Below, piece by piece: positions 8,453-58,048 of a stretch of DNA of 64,000 nt. The notes beneath the pieces are model-generated. The model was not told the DNA's origin and ran no database searches. It was given only the letters and a program-made list of their open reading frames with translations. Location: positions 7,688,001 through 7,752,000 of the forward strand of contig NC_073416.1 in the NCBI RefSeq assembly GCF_028641065.1, written 5' to 3'. This DNA is from Leucoraja erinacea (lineage: Eukaryota). Numbering within the stretch: the first letter of the stretch is position 1; every line of letters starts with the position of its first letter. Position numbers and translations under genes: made by a program.

Positions 8453-11318
8453 CTAGAAACATAGAAAGTAGGTGCAGGAGTAGGCCATTCGGCCCTTCGA
8501 GCCTGCACCGTCATTCGATATGATCATGGCTGATCATCCAACTCAGTATCCCATCCCTGCATTCTCTCCATACCCCCTGATCCCTTTAGCCACAAGGGCC
8601 ACATCTAACTCCCTCTTAAATATAGCCAATGAACTGGCCTCAACTACCTTCTGTGGCAGAGAATTCCACAGATTCACCACTCTCTGTGTAAAAAATGATT
8701 TTCTCATCTCGGTCCTAAAAGACTTCCCTCTTATCCTTAAACTGTGACCCCTAGTTCTGGACTTTCCCAACATCGGGAATAATCTTCCTGCATCTAGCCT
8801 GTCCAACCCCTTAAGAATTTTGTACGTTTCTATAAGATCCCCCCTCAATCTTCTGAATTCCAGCGTGTACAAGCCGAGTCTATCCAGTCTTTCTTCATAT
8901 GAAAGTCCTACCATCCCAGGAATCAGTCTGGTGAACCTTCTCTGTACTCCCTTTATGGCAAGAATGTCTTTCCTCAGATTAGGAGACCAAAACTGTACGC
9001 AATACTCCAGGTGTGGTCTCACCAAGACCCTGTACAACTGCAGTAGAACCGCAAGGCTCAGTGCTGGGACCCCAGGACTGCAGTAGAACCTCCCTGCTCT
9101 TATACTCAAATCCTTTTGCTATGAATGCTAACATACCATTTGCTTTCTTCACTGCCTGCTGCACCTGCATTCCTACTTTTAATGACTGGTGTACCATGAC
9201 ACCCAGGTCTCGTTGCATCTCCCCTTTTCCTAATCGGTCACCATTCAGATAATAGTCTACTTTCCTGTTTTTGCCACCAAAGTGGATAACCTCACATTTA
9301 TCCACATTATACTGCATCTGCCATTCATTTGCCCACTCACCCAACCTATCCAAGTCACCTTGCAGCCTCCTAGCATCCTCCTCACAGCTAACACTGCCCC
9401 CCCAGCTTAGTGTCATCCGCAAACTTGGAGATGTTTCATTCAATTCCCTCATCCAGATCATTAATATATATTGTAAATAGCTGGGGTCCCAGCACTGAGC
9501 CTTGCAGTACCCCACTAGTTACTGCCTGCCATTCTGAAAAGGACCCGTTTACTCCCACTCTTTGCTTCCTGTCTGCCAGCCAGTTCTCTATCCACATCAA
9601 TACTGAACCCCCAATACCATGTGCTTTAAGTTTGTATACTAATCTCTTATGTGGGACTTTGTCAAAAGCCTTCTGAAAGTCCAGATACACCACATCCACT
9701 GGTTCTCCCCTATCCACTCTACTAGTTACTTCCTCAAAAAATTCTATAAGATTCGTCAGACATGATTTACCTTTCATAAATCCATGCTGACTTTGTCCAA
9801 TGAATTCACCACTTTCCAAATGTGCTGCTATCCCATCTTTAATAACTGACCCCAGAATTGTCCCCACCACCGATGTTAGACTAACTGGTCTGTAATTCCC
9901 CGTTTTCTCTCTCCCTCCCTTTTTAAAAAGTGGGGTTACATTAACTACCCTCCAGTCCTCAGGAACTACTCCAGAATCTAAAGAGTTTTGAAAAATTATC
10001 ACTAATGCATCCACTATTTCTGCGGCTACTTCCTTAAGTACTCTGGGATGCAACTTATCTGGCCCTGAGGATTTATCGGCCTTTAATCCATTCAATTTAC
10101 CTAACCCCACTTCCCGGCTAACCTGGATTTCACTCAGTTCTTCCATCTCATTTAACCCCCGGTCCCTTGCTATTTCCGGCAGATTGTTTATGTCTTCCTT
10201 AGTGAAGACAGAACCAAAGTAGTTATTCAATTGGTCTACCATGTCCTTGTTCCCCATGATCAATTCACCTGTTTCTGACTGCAAGGAACCTACATTTGTT
10301 TTAACTAATCTTTTCCTCTTCACATATCTATAAAAACTTTTGCAGTCAGTTTTTATGTTCCCTGCCAGTTTTCTTTCATAATCTATTTTCCCTTTCCTAA
10401 TTAAGCCTTTTGTCCTCCTCTGCTGGACCCCAAATTTCTCACAGTCCTCTGGTAGGCTGCTTGTTCTGGCTAATTTGTACGCTTCATCTTTTGTTTTGAT
10501 ACTATCCCTGATTTCCCTTGTTATCCACGGATGCACTACCTTCCCTGATTTATTCTTTTGCCAAACTGGGATGAACACGTGTTGTAGTTCATCCATGCAG
10601 TTTTTAAATGTCTTCCATTGCATATCCACCGTCAACCATTTAAGAATCATTTGCCAGTCTATCTTGGCCAATTCACGTCTCATACCCTCAAAGTCACCTT
10701 TCTTTAAGTTCAGGACCCTTGTTTCTGAATTAACAATGTCACTCTCCATCCTAATGAAGAACTCAACCATATTATGGTCACGAATGCTCCTTGCATTAAG
10801 ATACAAAGCCTTCAGGCTTGTCTTTACAACACTCTTACTCCTTATACAATTATGTTGAAAAATGTCCCTGTTTGATTTTTGCCCTGGATTTGTCTGCCTG
10901 CCACTTTTACTTTTCACCTTGCTACCTATTGCTTCTACTCTCATTTTACACCCCTCTGCCTCTCTGCTCTTGCACCCATCCCCCAGCCACATTAGTTTAA
11001 ATCCTCCCCGACAGCACTAGCAAACACTCCCCCAAGGACATTGGTTCCATTCCAGCCCAGGTGCAGACCGTCCTGTTTGTACTGGTCCCACCTCCCCCAG
11101 AACTGGTTCCAATGCCCTAGAAATTTGAATCCCTCCCCCTTGCACCATTTTTCAAGCCACGTATTCATCTGCAATATCCTCCTATTCCTACTGTGACTGG
11201 CCCGTGGCACTGGTAGTAATCCAGAGATTATTACCTTTGAGGTCCTACTTTTAAATTTATCTCCTAGCTCCCTAAATTCACCTTGTAGGACCTCATCACT
11301 TTTTTACCTATATCGTTG
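8453..11318 (-). mobile_element. CR1-clade LINE, 5'-truncated, with ORF1 SGNH-esterase remnant and disrupted ORF2 reverse transcriptase
   Basis: ORF1 tail ...KQDGLHLGWNG...; ORF2 RT motifs [42 protein letters not shown]; (TTTCTATG)-type 3' tail at 8453-8467; frameshifted; lies in the last DNAJC14 intron. Confidence 0.95.
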
Positions 11319-20800: not shown

Positions 20801-20918
20801 GACATTTTGTACTGTCATTCTCAATTAGAACATTAGTTAAGGTAACTAGCTCAATAGAAATAACTGAATGAGACAGTTGTACTTTGTCTTTAATGAAATG
20901 TTTTTACACAGAACTTAC

Positions 20919-22757
20919 CAGCACGGCCAACTGCCGATAAGCCTTTTTCAGCTCGGCATCAGTGGCCGTTACCTCCACGCCTAGAACTTTAAAAGGATCC
21001 AGCTCCTCCTCTGGTACATCAGCCATTGCCAACAGCCGGTCAACCTCGTGATCTGGCTGGTACCTATTAGCACTAGGAGACTGGGGCGAAGGAGGCGAAG
21101 AAGGAGACTGGCCCGCAGTCCGCCATTTAGCAGTTAGCCACAATCTCATTTTCAATTTTTCCCACAGTCTTTTCAAATAATTCCAAGTTCTAGATTCTTC
21201 TATGGTGGAGCACAAGTAGTGCAGAAAACAAACAGTTACCGTGTGGGGAAAGTTTTCTTGGCCCCTGGTGGGTAACCTCTGAAAAATCATGAAAACACCA
21301 GACTTTGCATATTTGTAGCCAAGTCGTAAGCATCCTATAAATAACATTAGTACTAGAAAAAGCAGAGCAAGCAGCATTTTTAAAAACTTTAGAGTCATCT
21401 TCATCAAGGAAAGGCAAAACCTCCTCAGCTTCTCTGACCCCAACTTTGCCTGCTTAAGAAGCCACATGCTTGAGGTCCTTGCACTGCCCTTTAAGGAATT
21501 AAAATCCTCTTTTTGTATCTGGCAACATGAATACACAAATTTGCCGCCCATCTCCACGTACTCCCCACACTTGTGGGTCACAAAAAGAATGACGTCCATT
21601 ACAATTTTGATGTAGGTTACACATCTCCAAAGCAGCTCCTCGGTTTGTTTCTGGATTCCAAACTTGAATCTATCCCGGTTTTCGGTATGCTGCCGCTTCC
21701 TCTCAGCCTTCGAGTGCCTTTGTTTATTAATGGAAGACTTGCTATTTTTCTTTGCGTGCTCCCTCGCATCCTCTTTATCGTAGGCGTTTGAAGAGTTCTC
21801 TTTTGTCACCGATTTGTTTCTTTGCCTTTTGCTGCTTTTTCTGTTGGCCAGCTTCACCGGCTGCGTGACATCTTCCGTCACCTTTATGTGGCTTTCGGCC
21901 GTACTGTCATGTTCATTGAATTCATCACATTTGTCCATTCCATCTTCTTGTGAAACATTGGCAGAATGAATGCAGTCCAAGTTGTCAAGAAATGACAGAT
22001 TGTCATCCGTGCTGAATGGGAAGTTGTGGTCTCCGTAGCTTCGGGATTCAAAACACCCGTCCAAAAACATCCGAGTACCTGCGGGACTTTCCAACAGAGG
22101 AATGGATGATCGGCACCCATCCTCCTGCGAGTCATTCTCAGTCACACCGTCGCGATTGGTTATTGCATCGGAAAGAGAGTACGGCTTATCACTACTGGAC
22201 AACTCAGTCTCTCGGTTTTGAAGGTTACATCCCTCACATGATGTGCCGGAACAATAAAGAGGTGACAGTTTCCCTGTAAAACCCAGCTGTCCACAGGGGA
22301 AGCTCAGTCCTTCCATATCCAACGTCTTCAGCTCCTCGTCTAAACGTTGATCTGAATATGGTTCTTTGTGGTCAAAGCACTTCACGTCACCGAGAGACCA
22401 ATCTGACAAGGGCGGACTCTTCCCTGTCTCAGTATTTCTCCCAGGTTGTTGGCTTGCTCTTGACCAGGTCTGATGACGATGCGATGTGTCGACATGTTCA
22501 GAAATATACAGATCTGAGTCGATGTTGTCACGTTGTGCACGACAGGAATAACTTGGAAAAGCATCCGTTTTTTCATCATGAGGAGAAATGGCAACTGGCC
22601 GATTTATCTGGGCAAACTGACAATGGCTGTGATGGAGCAGTTGGGATGTAACTCGCGGCTCTTCCTCCTCCTCCTCCTCCTCCTCATTCCAGTGGGTTTT
22701 GTTTCTTTCTGACCACTGCAAATCACCTCTCCTACCATAGTGATCCTTTCCCTCCAT
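20919..22757 (-). CDS. DNAJC14: DNAJC14 large coding exon 1 (613 codons; disordered N-terminus, hydrophobic segment, start of J-domain)
   Basis: Ends EVDRLLAMADVPEEELDPFKVLGVEVTATDAELKKAYRQLAVL before a GTAAGT donor. ATG in ACAATGG context with in-frame stops upstream; acceptor ttgcag at 22806. Total CDS 2538 nt = 845 aa. Confidence 0.93.
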
Positions 22758-23077
22758 TGTAGCTGAATCTCAAGTTACTGGTAATCATGTTTGGTCCATC
22801 TTCACCTGCAATCAACAAGATATAATCAGTTTTTAATTCTTCAATTGAAGTAAATACATATAGATATTCAAATCTTGCAACAATGACATGGTAATAATTA
22901 ATAAAAGCCACCTCACAAATCAATACATTGCATCTATGCACAGTTATTTCCACAGTTATCTACACATACATAAATAACCTACCTGCCTTAATGCAAGTCA
23001 TGAATAACATTACAGACACACATCTCTATAAATAACTTCACACCTGCAGATACCGAACAAAAAAAGAGCGTGAGGAA

Positions 23078-35478: not shown

Positions 35479-37513
35479 TTGGTTGTCCAAGATTTCCAAG
35501 AAATGCTACAGATTTCCAAGAAATACTGGAGAGTTGGAATAAACAGATACCCTGGCTAACAGTGTCCTCTGCTTTGAATGGGAACAGAGGTACTGGGATT
35601 AGCTAATGCATGCGTGATGTTTTAGGTTGGGGCACTTCTTCAGACGCACATTTTGTGTTGGCATCCTGCTTCAGATCTGAAGGATTTCGACCAGAAACAT
35701 CACCTATCTGTGTTCTCCAGAGATGCTGCCTGACCTGCGGAGTTACTCTCTTACTTGCCAAGAGAGCCGTTTTATTAGCTTTCAAGCTCCAATAACTTGT
35801 GGGGGGCTGTAAAAGAATAATTTACAGGGGAAAAAAAAAAATGGTGACACATCCTCTTGATAAAGCCAAATTAGGAAGCCAGAGCTTGATCACGTTTCAC
35901 TGACGAGTGTAGCATCTCTTTACAATCTACAAGCTAGTTTTTTATACAAACAGGTAATTTTTCATTGGGGAGATAAGAAATCCAGTGATCTTTTAGTTTG
36001 GGGCCAGGCTTCACTTAAAACATTTTTTTTTACACAGGAGTCTGCGGAACTCAACAAACCTTTTTGAGACCTATAGAATGGTCGCTGTACGGAGAACAAA
36101 GATTCACAAAGGGACAATTTGAGGGCAAATAGGTCTATGTTCAAGGAGAGAGGAGACTTTACTGCATTTAGATTCATTCTTCAAAGATGGGAATTCATGA
36201 TGGTGGAACCGGGCAGTCAAAGTACAAAAACATTTTTTTTTAAAAATCAGTGTTTCACCATGCATGCAACACCACGACTGACAGAATGCAAGCTGGTGAA
36301 TCCACGCCATACACCAAGCTCATGATTCAATGTGCAGAGGCAAGATCACCTCGTCTATTGATGCGAGGAGAAATTGGAGGGAATTGACACACCTCAGCCA
36401 CCGCATTCTTGATTTTATTCCAATATATAAGCCATTTAAATCCGTTGCATGTGATAAATACCCTAAGTTGCCAGTATAGTCCTTCATCCTGGCAATCACT
36501 GCACCCAAGGAATATTGAAATGTTTTTTTTCCCCCCTGGAATCTGGCTTGCCTGACATTCTGATTGGGGAACTTCAAACTTCGGTCCATGCAGTGAAATT
36601 CTGAGGGATGCAAATAATATCGCACCTTCCCACAATGAAGCACGATGTTTACACCAGGGACGTACTGAAGATTTCAAGCAGTGGCCTCGAACAATAAGTT
36701 GGATGCTTGTTCAGTGCTAAACTTTGGACATTCTCAGGTAATTCACTTTGACGAGGAAGATGAGCAAATTGTGGAAAGTTGATCAAATTCTCAGATGGTC
36801 TCAGAGTCAAATCACTCAGCACAGAAGCAGGCCGTTCTGCCCATCATGCCCATGCCGTCTATTGTACTTATCTATAGCAATGCAATTTCCCCACATTTGG
36901 CCTGTGGCCTTCCATGCCTCGGAAATTCAAATGCTTGCCTCAATGTTTCTGAAACACACGTTTCTGCCTCCACCTCCTTGGGTACTGTGCTCCAGATTAT
37001 ACCACCCTCAGACTTCCTCTAAACCTCCTACCCCTTACATCATACACCCTTGTTTTAGACATCCCCACCAAAGGAAAAATATTGTAACTATCTACTGCAT
37101 GTCCTCATCCCCCAGAAACCGACATGCTCAGTGGATCACATCACCTTTTACCATTGCTTCTTTTGGACTTTTCCGTCTGGATGCTGGATGCATGCTGCTG
37201 GATGCATGCTGTCACACAATATAATGAGGCCTTATAATGCTAAGCTACAGAACAAAGAGGTACATTTACTACCTGCCATTTCTCCATGCACCCAGTTATC
37301 TGCCTTGACTATACAGTCAGTGGCAGGTCAGAAAACAAGGTCTGCTCTTTCTTTATTCAAAGTTAAAACACAAATAAGTGTTCTTGCACATCTCCTAACT
37401 GCCGGCATGAAGGCAGTGTTGGCAAACACCTGGGAACAGGCTGTGTCCATTTTTTTCAGGACAGAGGAAGATAGCACATGCGCAAGAGGATTTAAATGGC
37501 ACAAGAGCATTAC

Positions 37514-37687
37514 CTCTTTGGTGTTGAAAGTCTGGACACTACTTTCCACGGATGGAACTCAGGGCTGCTGCAGTGCTTTCGCAGTTCCACCAAAGCTTTT
37601 TGGGTTTCTATTTCTCCTTGCTTTTGAAATTCTTCCTCAGTTAGAAGCCGTCGGGGCTCTGGCTTGTTTCTTAGTTTGAAAACCTTC
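37514..37687 (-). CDS. NEMP1: NEMP1 exon 8
   Basis: [57 protein letters not shown]; tttag acceptor, GTAATG donor; 174 nt. Confidence 0.95.
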
Positions 37688-38269
37688 CTAAAATTAGAGT
37701 ATTTAGAAAATTATGAAAAGGTCACTGGGATATATTTGAGAGAAATCTTGGCTTTTTTAAAAATCCCTCTTTCTGCCTGTTCCCAAGGAATCAACTCATG
37801 GCAGCTGTCAAAACTTTCTGAATTCTTTCCTTTCCCATACCAAACCTTATTTCAGGAGTAAACATGAAACCAAAAATAAAATCTGATCTGCGGGGATAAA
37901 AAGGGACTTAAATAACTTGGGTCCTTATGGACTTTATATTTTAGGTGCCACAACATGATCTCAAGAGCTGAGAGTTAAAAGGAGTTTCTTGGTCTCTACC
38001 AATCTACAACCTCCCACTAGATGGCGCCCATGAGGTAAGTGTGTTGAACATTAATTGTCCTTCACAATACTGTATGATCAGCAAAGCAAGCAGGGTGTTG
38101 TCGTTGCAAGTTGATACACAGTACAACTTATGCCTTAGTTTCATACTAAAAGCAACTGTTCCAGTCAGTACCTATAATGCCAATGAATTAACAATGGAGT
38201 TGAAAAAATAAATGCACTCTTTTCTTCACATGCCACCAGATGCATTGGAAGTCGGTATTGAGGAGATTC

Positions 38270-38500
38270 TTGCCAGTGGTAGAGCTGCTGTCTCTGAGTT
38301 CCAGTCACCCAGCTTCAACCGTGACCTCCGGCATAAACTATGCGGAGTTTGCACGTTCCCCGTGTGACAGCACACGTTTCCTCCAGATGCTCTACTTTCC
38401 TCCCGCATCCGGAAGACAAGCGGGTTGGTGGGTTAATTGGCCACGACACTTTGCGGTGTGGGGAGTTTAAATGGGATGAGTGTCAATGGGTGCTTGATGG
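38270..38500 (+). mobile_element. tRNA-derived V-SINE
   Basis: agtggtagagctgctg head and ggagtttgcacgttccccgtg...ctcccgcatcc central V domain. Minus-strand relatives at 46770-46935, 63870-64000 and 8390-8455. Confidence 0.7.
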
Positions 38501-38569
38501 TCGGCAAGAATTCTGTGGGATAAGCACCTGTTTCCATTCTAAATGACTTCATAACACTTCAACACTTAC

Positions 38570-38795
38570 TTGTATGCAGTGTAAGACCATTGAAAGGGCA
38601 GTTCGATGTTCTTGATGCAGAAAGCCACAATGAGCAGGGTCAGGGCCACCTGTCGTACTTGAATCCCGGAGTACATTAGGAACAGCCCAAAGAGTTGCAG
38701 GCTCCAGTTCAGCAGATTGATACTTCTCTCCTCCTCAGGGGGGCCATACTTGTAACACACAGCAAAGCTGATGAAGCCAGAAACTGTCACATAGC
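38570..38795 (-). CDS. NEMP1: NEMP1 exon 7
   Basis: GYVTVSGFISFAVCYKYGPPEEERSINLLNWSLQLFGL...QWSYTAY; ttcag acceptor, GTAAGT donor; 226 nt. Confidence 0.96.
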
Positions 38796-39248
38796 CTGAA
38801 ACATTAACAGCAGATGAGAAAAATAATCTTGGAGACACAAGGAACTACAGATGCTGGCTTACAGTGTTAGAGTAACTCAGCGGATCTGGGAGGACATGGA
38901 CAGACGACGTTGTGGGTTGGGACACTTCTTCAAACTTAAAATAACCGTCCCAGACTTGATGCCTGCATCTCCTAGATAATCTGGAGAGCACAACCCTATG
39001 TCACTTGAGCTGCGGAGTACTGTATAACTAGGAGTGCAGGAAGCAGAATAGAAAGACATGGCCACACTACTTGGAATAAAGTAGGGACAAGCCAGTAGAA
39101 TAAAGACGTCACATAGATCAGGAAAGGGGAGGGAAATATGGAGCAATGATCACCCACACTCTCTCAAACAGACTTGACCAGATGATGGCACATAGGTAGA
39201 CGGTAGCCAGCAAATTGAGGTATGACAAGTGTATGAGAATGTGCCTAG

Positions 39249-39353
39249 TGTGATGTATATGTAATGTAATATGTAATGTAAATGCCAGTGCCCCTTGAGG
39301 CCAAAAGCAGAAGCTGGCATTTACATTACATGTTACATTACATATACATCACA
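39249..39353. repeat. 40-bp inverted repeat (39/40 match, 25-nt loop)
   Basis: 39249-39288 is the reverse complement of 39314-39353 except T39270/G39332; followed by a tandem repeat of about 28 bp to 39413. Confidence 0.9.
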
Positions 39354-39538
39354 TCTCCCACTTCACTTTAATTACATCACATCTTCCCCTTCACTTTAAT
39401 TACATCACATCTCGTACAAATTTAGTCACAAAACCCCAGAGTGTCAATATTTAACAATACATGCTGGGTATCATACAGACGAACATTTTCAGAAAAATAC
39501 TCAATGTACCTTAAATTAAACACTGCGAACATTCTCAC

Positions 39539-39653
39539 CTAAAACATACTGCCAGTATTCTTTTAAGAGAAACTGCAAATTCCTAAGGGTCACTTGGATC
39601 AAATACAGAGATACAGACCAGCCACCTGCTACCAACAAGTAGAGAGAACTTCT
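39539..39653 (-). CDS. NEMP1: NEMP1 exon 6
   Basis: RSSLYLLVAGGWSVSLYLIQVTLRNLQFLLKEYWQYVL; tttag acceptor, GTGAG donor; 115 nt. Confidence 0.95.
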
Positions 39654-40245
39654 CTAAAATGGAAAGAAAGGAAAATATTAGCATTTTGTTTTGATGTTTA
39701 CTGAAAGCAAGTGGCATGCATTGGGGATCTTGGAACTACTAAAGAACTGTTCTGATACAGAAAATCTCACACTTTTGCCCCAACTTTCAGACAGCGCAAA
39801 TTTTGATTTTTACCCATGGCAGCTTCAACCTGGGTTCAAGTTCAACCCTTGCAGATAAACTCTCCTTCTATTAGGATTGTCTAGTTTGGATCACATCTTC
39901 CAGTGAGCTGAGTAAAGAAGTCCTCCCAATTCAGCATCAACTTTCCAATCACAGTCCATTTTTGACAAGTAAAATGCACACTTGTGCAGTCATGACTCCA
40001 TTTTGGAGAATGGAACACTTTAAAAGCCAACTTCCATCTTGTACCAAACTTGCATTGCATCTGTAAAAACAATGCTAATAGTGGTTACATCAAATGGAAA
40101 AAAGCTTTCAATTGCCCACTCCGGATATTAATTACCCCAAGTGCGAGCAAATTCAACCAGGCTACGAGGACCTGCTCACAAAGCAGGACAGAAACAGATG
40201 TCAGTTCATTTTTCTAACCCTGGACAAAGGCATTCTCCAACTTAC

Positions 40246-40339
40246 CTTGGGCAGTAACCGAGCCAGAATGAAGATGACAATAACGGCTGAAGCCAGGATA
40301 CCCAAGCTCATTCCTGACGTATAGAAGAAAAGCTGACTC
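40246..40339 (-). CDS. NEMP1: NEMP1 exon 5
   Basis: SQLFFYTSGMSLGILASAVIVIFILARLLPK; tttag acceptor, GTAAG donor; 94 nt. Confidence 0.95.
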
Positions 40340-40629
40340 CTAAAAAGAGGAAAAAAATCTCAAATACTTGTGAAATATATTTTAAAAAGCAATACCAGCA
40401 CATGAACACAATCTCCCCCATCACTACAAAGATGAATGAGCTCCAGCTCAAATTTAAATATCACAACATTTAAAAATGGTCTGCCTTTTAAAAAAAAGTG
40501 ACATTTTTACTAGTTTAGAAACGTTAAGAGATGAAATGCTTACCTTAGTACCCAATGTTGTGCTGCTCCTCCCTGGGGTTGGTTGCCAACGTCACCAACA
40601 TTTTCATGGGACCAGTTTTGATTGCATGT

Positions 40630-42658: not shown

Positions 42659-44075
42659 CATAGAAACATAGAAAATAGGTGCAGAAGTAGGCCATTCGGC
42701 CCTTCGAGCCTGCACCGCCATTCAATATGATCATGGCTGATCATCCAGCTCAGTATCCTGTACCTGCCTTCTCTCCATACCCCCTGATCCCTTTAGCCAC
42801 AAGGGCCACATCTAACTCCCTCTTAAATATAGCCAATGAACTGGCCTCAACTACCTTCTGCGGGAGAGAATTCCAGAGATTCACCACTCTCTGTGTGAAA
42901 AAAGTTTTCCTCATCTCAGTCCTAAAAGATTTCCCCCTTATCCTTAAACTGTGACCCCTTGTCCTGGACTTCCCCAACATCGGGAACAATCTTCCTGCAT
43001 CTAGCCTGTCCAACCCCTTAAGAATTTTGTAAGTTTCTATAAGATCCCCCCTCAATCTTCTAAATTCTAGCGAGTACAAACCTTGTCTATCCAGTCTTTC
43101 TTCATATGAAAGTCCTGACATCCCAGGAATCAGTCTGGTGAACCTTCTCTGTACTCCCTCTATGGCAAGAATGTCTTTCCTCAGATTAGGAGACCAAAAC
43201 TGTACGCAATACTCCAGGTGTGGTCTCACTAAGACCCTGTACAACTGCAGTAGAACCTCCCGGCTCCTATACTCAAATCCTTTTGCTATGAATGCTAACA
43301 TACCATTCGCCTTCTTCACTGCCTGCTGCACCTGCATGCGTACTTTTAATGACTGGTGTACCATGACACCCAGGTCTCGTTGCATCTCCCCCTTTTCCTA
43401 ATCGGCCACCATTCAGATAATAATCTACTTTCCTGTTTTTGCCACCAAAGTGGATAACCTCACATTTATCCACATTATACTGCATCTGCCATGCATTTGC
43501 CCACTCACCTTGCAGCCTCCTAGCATCCTCCTCACAGCTAAAACTGCCCCCCAGCTTTGTGTCATCCGCAAACTTGGAGATGTTGCATTCAATTCCCTCG
43601 TCCAAATCATTAATATATATCGTAAATAGCTGGGGTCCCAGAACTGAGCCTTACGGTACCCCACTAGTCACTGCCTGCCATTGTGAAAAGGACCCGTTTA
43701 CTCCTACTCTTTGCTTCCTGTTTGCCAGCCAGTTCTCTATCCACATCAATACTGAACCCCCAATACCGTGTGCTTTAAGTTTGTATATTAATCTCTTATG
43801 TGGGACCTTGTCGAAAGCCTTCTGGAAGTCCAGATATAACACATCTACTGGTTCTCCCCTATCCACTCTACTAGTTACATCCTCGAAAAATTCTATAAGA
43901 TTCGTCAGACATGATTTACCCTTCATAAATCCATGCTGACTTGGTCCAATGATTTCACCACTTTCCAAATGTGCTGCTATCCCATCTTTAATAACTGATT
44001 CTAGCAGTTTCCCCACTACCGACGTTAGACTAACTGGTCTGTAATTCCCCGTTTTCTCTCTCTCTCCCTTTTTAG
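42659..44075 (-). mobile_element. CR1 LINE, 5'-truncated RT pseudo-ORF, same subfamily as 8453-11318
   Basis: [43 protein letters not shown]; in-frame stop near 43651; 18-bp deletion between TCACC repeats near 43510; +1 frameshift near 43390; (CATAGAAA)2 tail. Confidence 0.95.
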
Positions 44076-44288
44076 GCACCAGTCATGTCTCAAGGTTGCT
44101 GAACTAGAGTGTTTCAACCTCTAAAAAGTGTTTCAAAAGATTACAAATAAAAAGTACACCCGCAGGGATATTAAGATTAGCCTTCAGAGTAAAACACTTT
44201 ACCTAGCTAGATATGTGAAAAAGACCACTTGGAAAAGGAACGAGTGTGTGTGGCATCTATGGTGATACATCTGTTCAATTCAGCAGGA

Positions 44289-49479: not shown

Positions 49480-49925
49480 GGACGCCTCTCTCCGCGTTAC
49501 CGAGTGGCCACCATCAAGCACCGCACCCGGGGGAGGAGAGATAAAGAGGCCCAAGCGCCCGCCATATTGACACCACGCAACCTCGCCCTGACCGTACCTG
49601 CCGTACAAAAGTGCGTGACTGAAAACCCAAAAGCCGCCCAAACTATGAAGGCGAATCGGCCATTCAGCGGCAAAACGCCGAGAACTTTCATCCGTCCCGC
49701 CATCAGCAGCCCGGGCCCAGCGTGCCGCCGCGGCCCAGCGCCCGCCTCTCCGCTGACTGACTGACAGCCCGCGCCGCCAATCAGCCCGCGCCCCTCAACG
49801 GCCCAATGTCAAACCAACCAATGGACGCGGGGCGGGGGCGGGTCTTCCGCTGCCAGCTGCGAGGCGGCCTGGAGGACAGGAGCGGCCCGAGGGGCCGAGC
49901 GGCCGAGGGACAGGAGCTTTAAAAA
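49480..49925. promoter_or_regulatory. NEMP1: CpG island promoter of NEMP1 (possibly bidirectional)
   Basis: CpG-rich; CCAAT at 49777, 49803 and 49818; tandem GC boxes 49829-49842; TGACTGACAG at 49758-49767. Confidence 0.8.
49598..49703 (-). CDS. NEMP1: NEMP1 exon 1 (signal-peptide-like N-terminus)
   Basis: MAGRMKVLGV...FIVWAAFGFSVTHFCTA; human NEMP1 begins MAGGMKV; GTACGG donor, phase 1 joins exon 2. Total CDS 1284 nt = 427 aa. Confidence 0.88.
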
Positions 49926-50267
49926 GGTAAAGAAAAGTAGAGAGTTATACAGTTGTTAACAAGATGTTAATAAGATGAACTGCTCTGGCTATAAGTATAA
50001 GAGAGACTTGAGAATGTAGATTTATTTTTTTTAAAGATGAAGCCGAGATAGTTTAATGATGACCGAATTTGAGTTCATCAAGTTTAGGAAGGTTGACGAA
50101 GAGGTAAGGAGTCACAGATTGGTTGTCAAGGCAGTAACAAGATTGCATATATTAACATAACCACATAATGTAGGTAGAAGTTACAAATACATTCTAGGAT
50201 GTGGAATTCCCAATCATAAACCATTGTTGAAGCAGAGGTTTTGAAAAAGGAATTAGGTGGTTAAAGA

Positions 50268-54872: not shown

Positions 54873-55796
54873 GGTTAGGTGAATGGGCAAAAAGTTGGCA
54901 AGTGGGTATAATGTGTTAAGCAGTTCACATTTGAAGGGAGAAAGAGGACAGAACATTAATGAAGTGGAGAGAAACAGCAGGAAGCTGCAATACAAAGGGA
55001 TTCTGGAATCCTTGTGCACGAAACACAAAGCAGAGAATAGCAAAGACAGGTGAAGTGTTGGCTCTTATTTCAAGTCTTGTAATGTAAAGCCGGACCCTGG
55101 TAGGGTCACACCTGACACACTGTGTGCAGGTCTGCTCTCTCTACCTTGGCGAGGATAGCTTTTCACTTTTCACTGTACCTCGGTATACGTGACAATAAAC
55201 AGAACTAAGTGAAACCGAGATAGAATCATAGAAATGCACAGCACACAAACAGGTCCTTCGGCCTGTATCACTCGTTATCACCTGGCCCACAGCCAACAAT
55301 AGACCATTGTGGGCTCCACTTTTCCTTTAGCATCGCTACTTTTTGCATATCTTTCATTCATTTGTTCTCTATCTCTCTACATCACTGTTTGTGTCTCTAG
55401 TCTCCCTCTCCCCTGACTCTCAGTCTGAACAAGGATCTCGACCAGCTGAGTTACTCCAGCTTTTAGTGTCCCTTCGGCCCATTTCGCCCATTACTATCCA
55501 CGCTGATCCGATTTGGCCGATCAAGGGCCCCAATGGCCAACTCCAGGGCTTGTGGTCTTAGAACGAGGATAAAGTGATTCATGAAATGTGAGGGCGGAGT
55601 GAATGTTTCCGTCAGCAGTGTGCGGGTTGGGTTTTTCAGGGTCTGCTGTCTCCTGCCGCCCTCTGTTCGAGAGTCTCCCCGGGACACGGAGGTGACTATT
55701 CGGCTGGACGTGGGCTGCTCGCCGCCCCCGCTTCCACCCACGGACGGACACGCGTCATTCGGCGATCGACCCTCCACCTCCGCCGTGGAGGCGTGA

Positions 55797-55972
55797 ATGG
55801 AGCCGGAAATATCCAGCTGCCTCTCAAATAACACACACGAAGATACATACAGCGCCCCACAGCAAAGAGAAGCAGCGGGGAAGAAGCGACTCAGCCTGGG
55901 ACACTCCAGCAACCTCGCAGCCAGCCAGCGTGTGACGGCAGCTTCTGCTAAGCATCTCGAGTATAAAAAAAG
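55797..55972 (+). CDS. NAB2: NAB2-like coding exon 1 (predicted)
   Basis: ATG in a GC-rich region; open for 58 codons + 2 nt to an AG|GTAATT donor; phase 2 joins exon 2 in frame ([18 protein letters not shown]). No sequence homology recognised for this exon. Confidence 0.6.
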
Positions 55973-56199
55973 GTAATTGTAAACACCGGGGATAGACAAA
56001 AAAATGCTGGAGAAACTCAGCGGGTGAGGCAGCATCTATGGAGATAAGGAATAGGCGACGGTTCGGGTCGAGACCCTTGGTAGACACAGGGAACTGCAGG
56101 TGCAAAAGCAAGACACAGAGTGCTGGAGTAACTCAGCGGGTCAGGCAGCATCTGTGGAGAACATGGGTAGGTACAAAGTGCTGGAGTACAGCACATGTA

Positions 56200-56395
56200 C
56201 AGTATGGTCTCTACTGCTTACGTGTACGGCAAGATATACTGTTTTTACACACACAATAAATGTGTACTATATACTATATGATATACTGTGTGTATTCACT
56301 GTACAAGATACACTGTATGCAAACTTCACAACACAGTGACTGTATAAACACCGTATGATACATCTAAATGTTATGCAGTATATATAACATACACT
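56200..56395. repeat. Low-complexity (TACACTGTA-like) degenerate repeat in NAB2 intron 1
   Basis: Recurrent gatatactgt / tacactgtat / cactgtac words. Confidence 0.55.
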
Positions 56396-56937
56396 GATTC
56401 CTTCTCTCCAGAGATGCTACCTGCCCCCACTGAGGTACTCCAGCTTCTTGTGCCTATCTTTTGTGTAAACCAGCATCTGCTGTTCCTTCCTACACAGAAA
56501 AGATGGTCTGTTTCCGTGCAGTGTGACTCTGATACTGTCACCGTGTCGCTGTGAGATGGCGGTGGCTGTTCTTTTGTGACATATAGTTCTTTTATGTCCT
56601 ATAGTAATATGAATTCATGGTTCAACAGGGGGAATGAAGCAGTCGATAAGTCAAGTGTTTTATTGTCAAATGTCCCAGATAGAACAATGAGATTCTTACT
56701 TGCAGCAGCACAACAGTACACTGTAAACAATATAATAAACGAGGAAAAAAGTTCAGTGTGCGTCTAAAAACAACAATAATAGTGCAATAATAACATTAAT
56801 AGTCTATACAATTCAGAGCTTGTTCAGGGAGGTTGTAGTGTTTAGCCTGGTGCCTGTATATTTAATATGATTGATAAACGACAGTATTTTTAGTGAGAGC
56901 GGGCTCGGGGTTTCACGTTGCTGTTACTTGTTCCTAG

Positions 56938-57577
56938 GTCCGACAGCGACATGTCTTTGCCGCGGACGCTCGGTGAACTGCAGCTGTTCTGCCTGCTGCA
57001 GAGGGCCAACCTCACGGCCTATTACCAGAACTTCATCCAACAGGGAGGGGACGACGTGAGGCAACTGTGCGAGGCCGGAGAAGAGGAGTTCCTGGAAATC
57101 ATGGTTCTGGTTGGCATGGCCTCCAAGCCTCTGCACGTCCGCAGGCTGCAGAAAGCCTTGCGCGAGTGGATGGCCAACCCTGCCGCCTTCCACCGCCCAC
57201 TGGCCAGCAGCCTGTCCCGCTTCAAGCTGTCCGCCTCCTCGACTCGCAAGCCAAAGAGGAAAGCGCTCGATGGCGGCAGCGCGGACGCCTTCCCTGAAGG
57301 CAAACGCCTGCGGAGTCTGGTCCCCGCGCCCACCGGCAGCGACAGCCCCAGTTCCTCCTCGGACGGCGAGGGCAGGAGTATCCCGGCGCTGGGGTCGGAG
57401 GAGGAGGAGGAGGAGCAGGAGGGCCGGTCAGGGGAAGCCCCGGGGCACTTGAGGCTGACAAAGCCGGTGGGGACGGAGGGCAGCGATCCCGTGAAGAAAG
57501 AGGAGCGCCTGGAACACGGCTCCGAGCGAGCAGCCAACGCAGCAGATTGGAAGCTGATGTCTGCTCCGTCTACGTGA
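56938..57577 (+). CDS. NAB2: NGFI-A-binding protein 2-like exon 2: intact NCD1, eroded NCD2, early stop
   Basis: [73 protein letters not shown] is NCD1; ttcctag acceptor; head-to-head with NEMP1 as human NAB2; frame ends at TGA 57575-57577. Confidence 0.85.
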
Positions 57578-58048
57578 ACAGAGGGAGCTAATTCAGGAAC
57601 GGTTTAATAATGGGGTCACCCAAACCAGGGCTTAAGCCAATTCTGCTTTGGAAGCCAGCTTTGCCAATACCCACCCAATTCCCTCGGCCCAGTGTACCAG
57701 GGCTGCTGCAGTGAAATAAAGAGTAATTTCGTTTCGATGTTTAATAATATTAACAAAAACGGACATTGGGGTAAACCAAGGGTTATGGGCAGACGAAACA
57801 GTTTGGCGATTAAAACCTACAGATTGTTGGAGGAGGAAGGATTGAGATGCGACACTGTTGGGGTGATGCTGGGACGGGGTGGTAGGGGGTCAAGTCATCT
57901 CATATATTCAGCTTTTCCTTGTATCGCTAAGAACCAGTTGGGAGCAGCCTCCAAGCAGCCATAGTGTTGGACAGTCAGGAAGAATTTGTCAAATAGCATG
58001 ACATGGATTCAATAGGGTGCAGGTACAACACAAGGAGGATAATGGTTC

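Follow-up and report, generated by a model that had tools for sequence, protein, structure and literature searches.

Among the systems closest to the one described here are altered NAB proteins. Svaren and colleagues are said to have engineered, in 1997-98, dominant-negative NAB mutants in which NCD1 carries point changes in an otherwise full-length protein, and from the same work comes, reportedly, a mammalian NAB2 splice form without exon 3, in which NCD1 is present and repression is lost; self-association of NCD1 was reportedly found by Svaren in 1998. A further case is the NAB2-STAT6 fusion of solitary fibrous tumour, which keeps the EGR-binding part, loses part of the repressor region and adds the activation domain of STAT6 (PMC11554739). 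In the unaltered protein, NCD1 binds the R1 region of EGR proteins (PMC2132876; PMC3084842), and regulation and repression have been ascribed to NCD2 and the C-terminal CHD4-interacting region (PMC2768752; PMC11554739). In mammals, EGR sites occur in NAB2 promoters and EGR2 binds and activates the promoters of Nab2; bony vertebrates need feedback between EGR and NAB to myelinate nerves and to develop the hindbrain (PMC2235890).

The NAB2 gene of the skate Leucoraja erinacea lies in the window analysed here, a stretch of 64,000 nucleotides (positions 7688001-7752000 of contig C40, which has 8,084,570 bases). In skates this known regulator is truncated throughout the lineage, and the loss of NCD2 is common to three genera, Leucoraja, Amblyraja and Rhinoraja. 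The skate protein is thus like the tumour fusion in what it keeps and loses, although no STAT6 activation domain or fusion is seen in it, and it differs from the engineered mutants and the exon 3-less form in that an entire lineage carries the loss as a fixed genomic state. Bony-vertebrate NAB2 has the same NCD1, tree position, NEMP-family and STAT5/6-class neighbours and EGR-type promoter sites, but it is 471-526 aa long, with an NCD2 of 171-182 bits and a CHD4-interacting C-terminal part, whereas skate NAB2 has 208 or 271 aa, an undetectable NCD2 and no such part. The RefSeq NAB2-like models of L. erinacea (XP_055520325), Amblyraja radiata (XP_032871480/1) and Rhinoraja longicauda (XP_078287627/8) are the same short proteins; they carry automatic names only, and the literature found does not describe the domain loss.

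Two exons join in frame, with a GT donor at 55973 and an AG acceptor at 56936-37, to encode a 271-aa product identical to XP_055520325, and the reading frame from the internal ATG encodes 208 aa; both lengths given by the initial annotation, which was made from the sequence alone, are thereby confirmed. The 63-aa N-terminal extension, of which the alternative first coding exon supplies 58 codons and 2 bases, has no Pfam match and occurs in Amblyraja and not in Rhinoraja, which leaves the 208-aa form as the product that is conserved. That form would come from the putative upstream exon, a probable first exon of NAB2 judging by its resemblance to the Rhinoraja isoform, with a GT donor after 49926; its start is not defined, and none of its ATGs shares the frame of exon 2. 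Beyond NCD1, the basic cluster is a possible nuclear-import signal. The features are collected in the table below.

Table. Features of the NAB2 locus, in window coordinates
Feature	Position	Strand	Basis or remark
First coding exon of head-to-head NEMP-family neighbour (probable)	49598..49703	-	ATG-led hydrophobic frame, GT donor
Putative upstream first NAB2 exon	49806..49926	+	Resembles N-terminal extension of Rhinoraja isoform X1
Perfect EGR-type site GCGGGGGCG	49832..49840	+	Upstream CpG-rich promoter region
Second perfect EGR-type site	55723..55731	-	66 bases before ATG 55797
Alternative first coding exon	55797..55972	+	Run X1 contig joins 55876-55970 to 56936
Exon 2, now terminal exon; ATG 56951, TGA stop 57575-57577	56938..57577	+	
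NCD1, residues 4-80	56960..57190	+	Pfam PF04904, E 1e-40
Basic cluster RKPKRK	57245..57262	+	Basic stretch at same alignment columns in rays and sharks
Eroded first half of NCD2, in frame	57446..57526	+	Alignment; below Pfam detection; predicted disordered
Old end of exon 2, now in +1 frame	57525..57557	+	Aligned against SEQPTQQVGS-stop of Rhinoraja
Broken remnant of later NAB2 exon	57932..58044	+	tblastn E 5e-5 and 6e-4, ray proteins

The identity of the gene is supported by phylogeny and by its surroundings. A quick tree of 41 proteins places the window protein with shark and ray NAB2 (SH-aLRT 100) and elasmobranch NAB2 inside the NAB2 clade (SH-aLRT 99), and topologies in which the skate proteins are forced to join NAB1 or a third NAB are rejected (p-AU 0.0002 each, 18 proteins); these are quick trees with long branches. 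Upstream of NAB2 there are NEMP exons by Pfam (37513-40347, minus strand), and the probable first coding exon of this neighbour presumably belongs to NEMP1. At 78556-81157 (minus strand), 21-24 kb downstream of NAB2, there are STAT exons; the name STAT6 for this gene rests on position, since the one exon scored matches STAT5 (65 bits) better than STAT6 (57 bits). A NAB2 between a NEMP gene and STAT6 is also the human gene order. Tree, constrained tests and the NEMP-NAB-STAT5/6 neighbourhood all bear out the orthology first proposed. The further suggestion of a partial duplicate fails, given that there is no second NAB2: the genome has three NCD1 loci, and the two outside contig C40 group with NAB1 (C7) and with the third clade (C27). 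The NAB2 tail and the first exon are each single-copy in the genome. As a candidate, a second NAB2 copy was sought with sawshark NAB2 as query, which found none in the genome.

Having established what the gene is, we turn to how it broke. No Pfam match to NCD2 (PF04905) is found at E<=1 in the 271-aa or the 208-aa product, and the family is absent from 3/3 skate proteins and from contig C40; a genome-wide profile search places it at four sites, on C7 and C27. What remains is the segment HLRLTKPVG...DPVKKEE, which aligns with the start of NCD2, as had been read from the sequence. The last ~17 residues, by contrast with that reading, are not a decayed end of exon 2: they come after a frameshift near 57524, where ~11 bases were lost if the Rhinoraja state, as judged from its protein, is ancestral. 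The Rhinoraja protein ends in SEQPTQQVGS, the shark counterpart at the exon-2 donor being KQLTQHEV, and because this old exon-2 end survives in the +1 frame, the final ~10 residues before the stop are new sequence. The old donor itself, at 57546-57547, has changed from GT to AT. It lies 29 bases before the stop.

Downstream there is a broken NAB2 exon that the initial annotation overlooked. It begins 355 bases beyond the stop and contains one stop and two frame changes, so that its match to a ray segment runs through three frames in turn; it scores 84 against that segment, a value reached by 0/100 shuffles. By inference it is the fifth NAB2 exon, which would now be 3' untranslated. The two exons expected before it leave no trace above shuffles in local alignments, and since the remnant is only ~385 bases from the old donor, they have probably been deleted. 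No exon for the second half of NCD2 was found by tblastn with 12 NAB proteins in the window and 200 kb downstream (264 kb, zero N), which extends an earlier negative over 6.4 kb; tblastn and shuffle-controlled local alignments over the same 264 kb likewise show no rescue exon for the segments after exon 2, bar the one remnant. The last ray segment gave a weak local-alignment score (2/40 shuffles) on a STAT exon, which was taken as chance. The protein therefore ends in exon 2 and has no C-terminal CHD4-interacting repression region, and its tail beyond residue 80 is left unstructured in the predicted model.

It could be argued that the short protein is an artefact, either of the assembly or of a full-length transcript that is spliced to exons elsewhere. 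The raw-read junction tables are swamped by repeats, tblastn can miss short diverged exons, and annotation read-through probably accounts for some of the shark models ending at the exon-2 donor, as in S. torazame, where both forms occur. We nevertheless consider this explanation highly improbable. The Amblyraja protein ends in the same way; the stop region is covered by runs X15 and X19 (both of unrecorded type), for which no change of frame is listed, a single X19 contig spanning the whole stretch from 56826 to 58040; and the 264 kb are free of gaps, all of which speaks against the assembly error that had been feared. The exon-2 donor is now AT, the downstream remnant is itself broken and close to that donor, and NCD2 is already eroded inside exon 2.

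Expression of the gene is real but low. A contig of run X1 (its RNA status is guessed) joins 55970 to 56936 and continues without gaps to 57878, so that it splices exon 1 to exon 2 and then reads through the stop. Together with two Logan-derived 271-aa proteins in a protein cluster and low raw RNA cover, it speaks for a spliced transcript, which a dead pseudogene would not be expected to have. In two oligo-dT raw-read runs, of which 5% was read, the coding bins have ~0-4.5 fold depth, and low cover goes on to about 58800; a single-cell run has zero cover on the coding part, which is also uncovered in run X21, and nothing from run X7 maps to the locus. Poly(A)-type hexamers occur at window positions 57715, 57809, 58304, 58767 and 59085; read cover passes the first two and is zero beyond 59379. 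The intron and the 3' region are also filled with short interspersed repeats.

The erosion is not confined to skates. In a survey of NCD2 bit scores in 29 proteins, where the bony-vertebrate range given above comes from five NAB2 proteins, chondrichthyan NAB1 scores 186-187 (n=4) and the third NAB 177-184 (n=6). Shark NAB2 covers a wide range (sawshark 170, Mustelus 140, S. torazame 118, whale shark 76, bamboo shark 65), rays score 22-29 (n=3) and skates have no match (n=3), whereas NCD1 remains at 136-149 in every full-length elasmobranch NAB2. A further three shark models, which break off at the exon-2 donor, score 55-82 for NCD2 and are possibly annotation read-through; for S. torazame both forms are annotated, one of them ending at that donor. 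A late C-terminal motif common to bony NAB2 and the third NAB is present in 0/10 shark and ray NAB2 in the alignment. Given how sharks and batoids are related, the nearly intact NCD2 of the sawshark suggests that NCD2 was probably eroded more than once. A holocephalan NAB2 is not among the best 120 matches listed, which does not imply its absence.

Both other NAB genes of L. erinacea, NAB1 on C7 and the third NAB on C27, keep a full NCD2. The third NAB (C27:9689857-9699857) is full-length and belongs to a clade of its own with chimaera, shark and ray members, its relatives having 526-578 aa; no bony-vertebrate member was recognised among the best 120 matches listed. Contig C27 also bears a homeobox cluster, a STAT gene and a class I myosin, which fits a genome-duplication sister of the NAB2 region. 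In three species of the stingray group, the contig with NAB2 and the contig with the third NAB are equal in size, which would fit a reported fusion between an autosome and the old X; the third NAB may be X-linked in these species.

The half of the protein that remains has been treated very differently. NCD1, the sole Pfam match in the product, scores 138 bits (cut-off 24.3), and is intact as first described. The predicted model has a pLDDT of 90-97 over residues 1-80 and helices at 7-18, 22-30, 36-41, 44-54 and 60-75; the top 14 matches of a fold search are SAM domains (probability 0.91-1.0, E 0.11-0.73), the Pfam entry is itself a SAM domain, and a five-helix SAM-type fold is predicted. The sequence of the domain shows 0/77 differences to Amblyraja and 0/77 to Rhinoraja, while residues 81-190 show 2/109 to Amblyraja (p 0.51) and 14/109 to Rhinoraja (Fisher p 0.0004). 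Since the linker evolves fast in any NAB, the Fisher test shows constraint, not purpose. Among columns that are near-invariant (at least 97%) in 296 other NAB proteins, 52/57 are kept. The five changes are Y13F, R14C, L22T, Q37R and A52V, R14 and L22 being invariant in 296/296 other NABs, and the unusual FCLL noted earlier is indeed present. Between batoids and sharks NCD1 differs at 9-12/77 positions in NAB2 and at 1-2/77 in the other two paralogues. With the five substitutions, this marks NCD1 as itself relaxed: the domain first changed and was afterwards kept constant. The constraint that had been suspected is thus upheld, though not by the CpG content that was offered for it: the tail (0.81) is as CpG-rich as NCD1 (0.66), and CpG content alone is no argument for constraint.

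These data bear directly on the view that NAB2 is slowly becoming a pseudogene, with NCD1 the last part to go and transcription kept up by the promoter shared with NEMP. The graded erosion of NCD2 in sharks and rays, the long batoid branches in the tree, the substitutions at invariant NCD1 columns, the low expression, the head-to-head layout with the NEMP neighbour, the existence of two redundant NAB paralogues and the raised Ka/Ks reported for shark X genes (PMC10620051) would all be in keeping with it. What makes slow decay fairly unlikely is the behaviour of NCD1: it is identical in three skate genera in which the tail differs at 14/109 positions, it keeps nearly all of its near-invariant columns though NCD2 is beyond detection, and it has no stop or frameshift in the three named skate proteins or the listed rows of X15 and X19. 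Those of X19 do hold 2 replacements in NCD1 (positions 74 and 78, both variable columns) beside 2 silent changes, which tells against strong constraint. Indels before the stop keep the frame: 2/2 coding indels listed for run X9 are multiples of three, as against 0/10 after the stop, or 2/2 against 0/4 (p 0.07) once indels are merged into events. The frame of NCD1 is open, and its identity in three genera speaks against neutral change.

A second way of reading the same substitutions is that NCD1 is under selection for a changed partner, having lost EGR binding and serving as a subunit of a SAM-type oligomer or in contact with something new. Because five near-invariant residues have changed, EGR binding may itself be altered. 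Six changed positions (13, 14, 15, 22, 26 and 27) cluster in predicted helices 1-2, positions 14, 22, 26 and 37 are changed in rays too, and the domain retains its acidic stretches GGDDV and EEEFLE and its basic stretch KPLHVRR. Nevertheless, no solved NCD1 structure is on record in the PDB, so the surfaces are not assigned, and both EGR-type sites at the promoter point to a lasting link with EGR; on balance we regard a switch of partner as unlikely.

Only two perfect EGR-type sites occur in the 64 kb, each beside a NAB2 first exon, where 0.09 would be expected window-wide. Of the local shuffles, 156/3000 (5%) hold a site such as that at 49832-40, which is marginal against local composition, and 37/3000 (1%) one such as that at 55723-31. 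The NEMP-family gene and NAB2 are separated by a compact head-to-head promoter region that is rich in CpG (49598-49930); a CCAAT-like element and a GC box occur in it, as do upstream ATGs that do not share the frame of NAB2.

The chromosomal setting is also of interest. Little skate chr40 has been inferred to be the X chromosome (bioRxiv 2025.02.26.637739), and Stat6 is X-linked in five elasmobranchs, dosage compensation of the X being incomplete (bioRxiv 2025.03.13.642935). We infer that contig C40 is chr40 from the number it bears and the genes it carries, and NAB2 is probably X-linked; the X sizes reported, 16.4-28.8 Mb, exceed that of this 8-Mb contig (bioRxiv 2025.02.26.637739). A comparable case is the degenerate HoxC cluster of the elasmobranch X, also a developmental regulator on the same chromosome whose decay is strongest in skates (PMC10620051; bioRxiv 2025.02.26.637739). 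HoxC differs in that it is in the pseudoautosomal region and seemingly absent from skates, while skate NAB2 is partly kept and transcribed. On C40 there is one homeodomain match among 150 scored, against clusters on C2, C7 and C27, which agrees with reports that skates have no HoxC genes.

The explanation we prefer, to which we would give an even chance, is that skate NAB2, with an intact NCD1 and a likely disordered tail, is a low-abundance, non-repressing modulator that weakens repression. Escape of its transcript from nonsense-mediated decay is expected because the stop sits in what is now the last exon, and the product is not expected to repress because NCD2 and the C-terminal CHD4-interacting region are the parts that carry regulation and repression; loss of EGR-driven repression by skate NAB2 is predicted from these domain losses. 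An NCD1-only NAB would then join EGR proteins, or NAB1 and the third NAB, as a weak competitor or a diluting subunit. The two intact autosomal paralogues may have taken over repression, which would have freed the repression half of NAB2 to decay, possibly in several elasmobranch lineages. The two promoter sites may keep the gene EGR-inducible, and if it is X-linked, males and females would have it at unequal dose. Dominant-negative action on NAB is plausible from the domain content; the low expression counts against it, since such action usually needs abundance, and so do the five changed near-invariant positions of NCD1.

A stronger version would make skate NAB2 a natural, EGR-inducible and X-linked anti-repressor, a decoy made of NCD1 only, by which NAB1 and the third NAB would be titrated, and which would reach a higher dose in females because the X is incompletely compensated. 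NAB2 would then have been turned from its role as a negative-feedback brake on EGR1/EGR2, with sharks and rays as intermediate steps. We hold this to be doubtful, and clearly the less probable form of the idea. On the EGR side, the R1 region of an EGR1-like gene (L029:1219-1392, minus strand) differs at its core motif from the R1 of the EGR2-like gene, and presumably also from the mammalian motif; a co-change with NAB2 is possible. The C-terminus of the EGR1-like protein contains many tandem copies of a Ser/Thr/Pro-rich unit.

Taken together, elasmobranch NAB2 forms a natural domain-deletion series, from the near-intact sawshark protein to the NCD1-only skate protein, that asks what NCD1 does alone in a feedback circuit of such importance to bony vertebrates. 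The locus further draws attention to a third NAB of cartilaginous fishes that had been overlooked, and it places one more regulator among the genes in decay on the old X of elasmobranchs; should NAB2 do no more than decay, it would illustrate ohnologue redundancy in a modest way. In open literature and the main text of preprints, among the top 20-25 entries of the larger listings, we found no paper on the NAB genes of cartilaginous fishes, on loss of NAB2 or on the third NAB; two sex-chromosome preprints and a chimaera paper make no mention of NAB2 in their main text, though their tables and supplements may list X-linked genes.

Elsewhere in the window, a 621-aa open exon at 20904-22769 (minus strand) ends in the start of a DnaJ domain and, we assume, resembles DNAJC14. 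Two further frames, at 8543-11016 and 42750-44082 (both minus strand), were judged by eye to be broken LINE-type reverse transcriptases.
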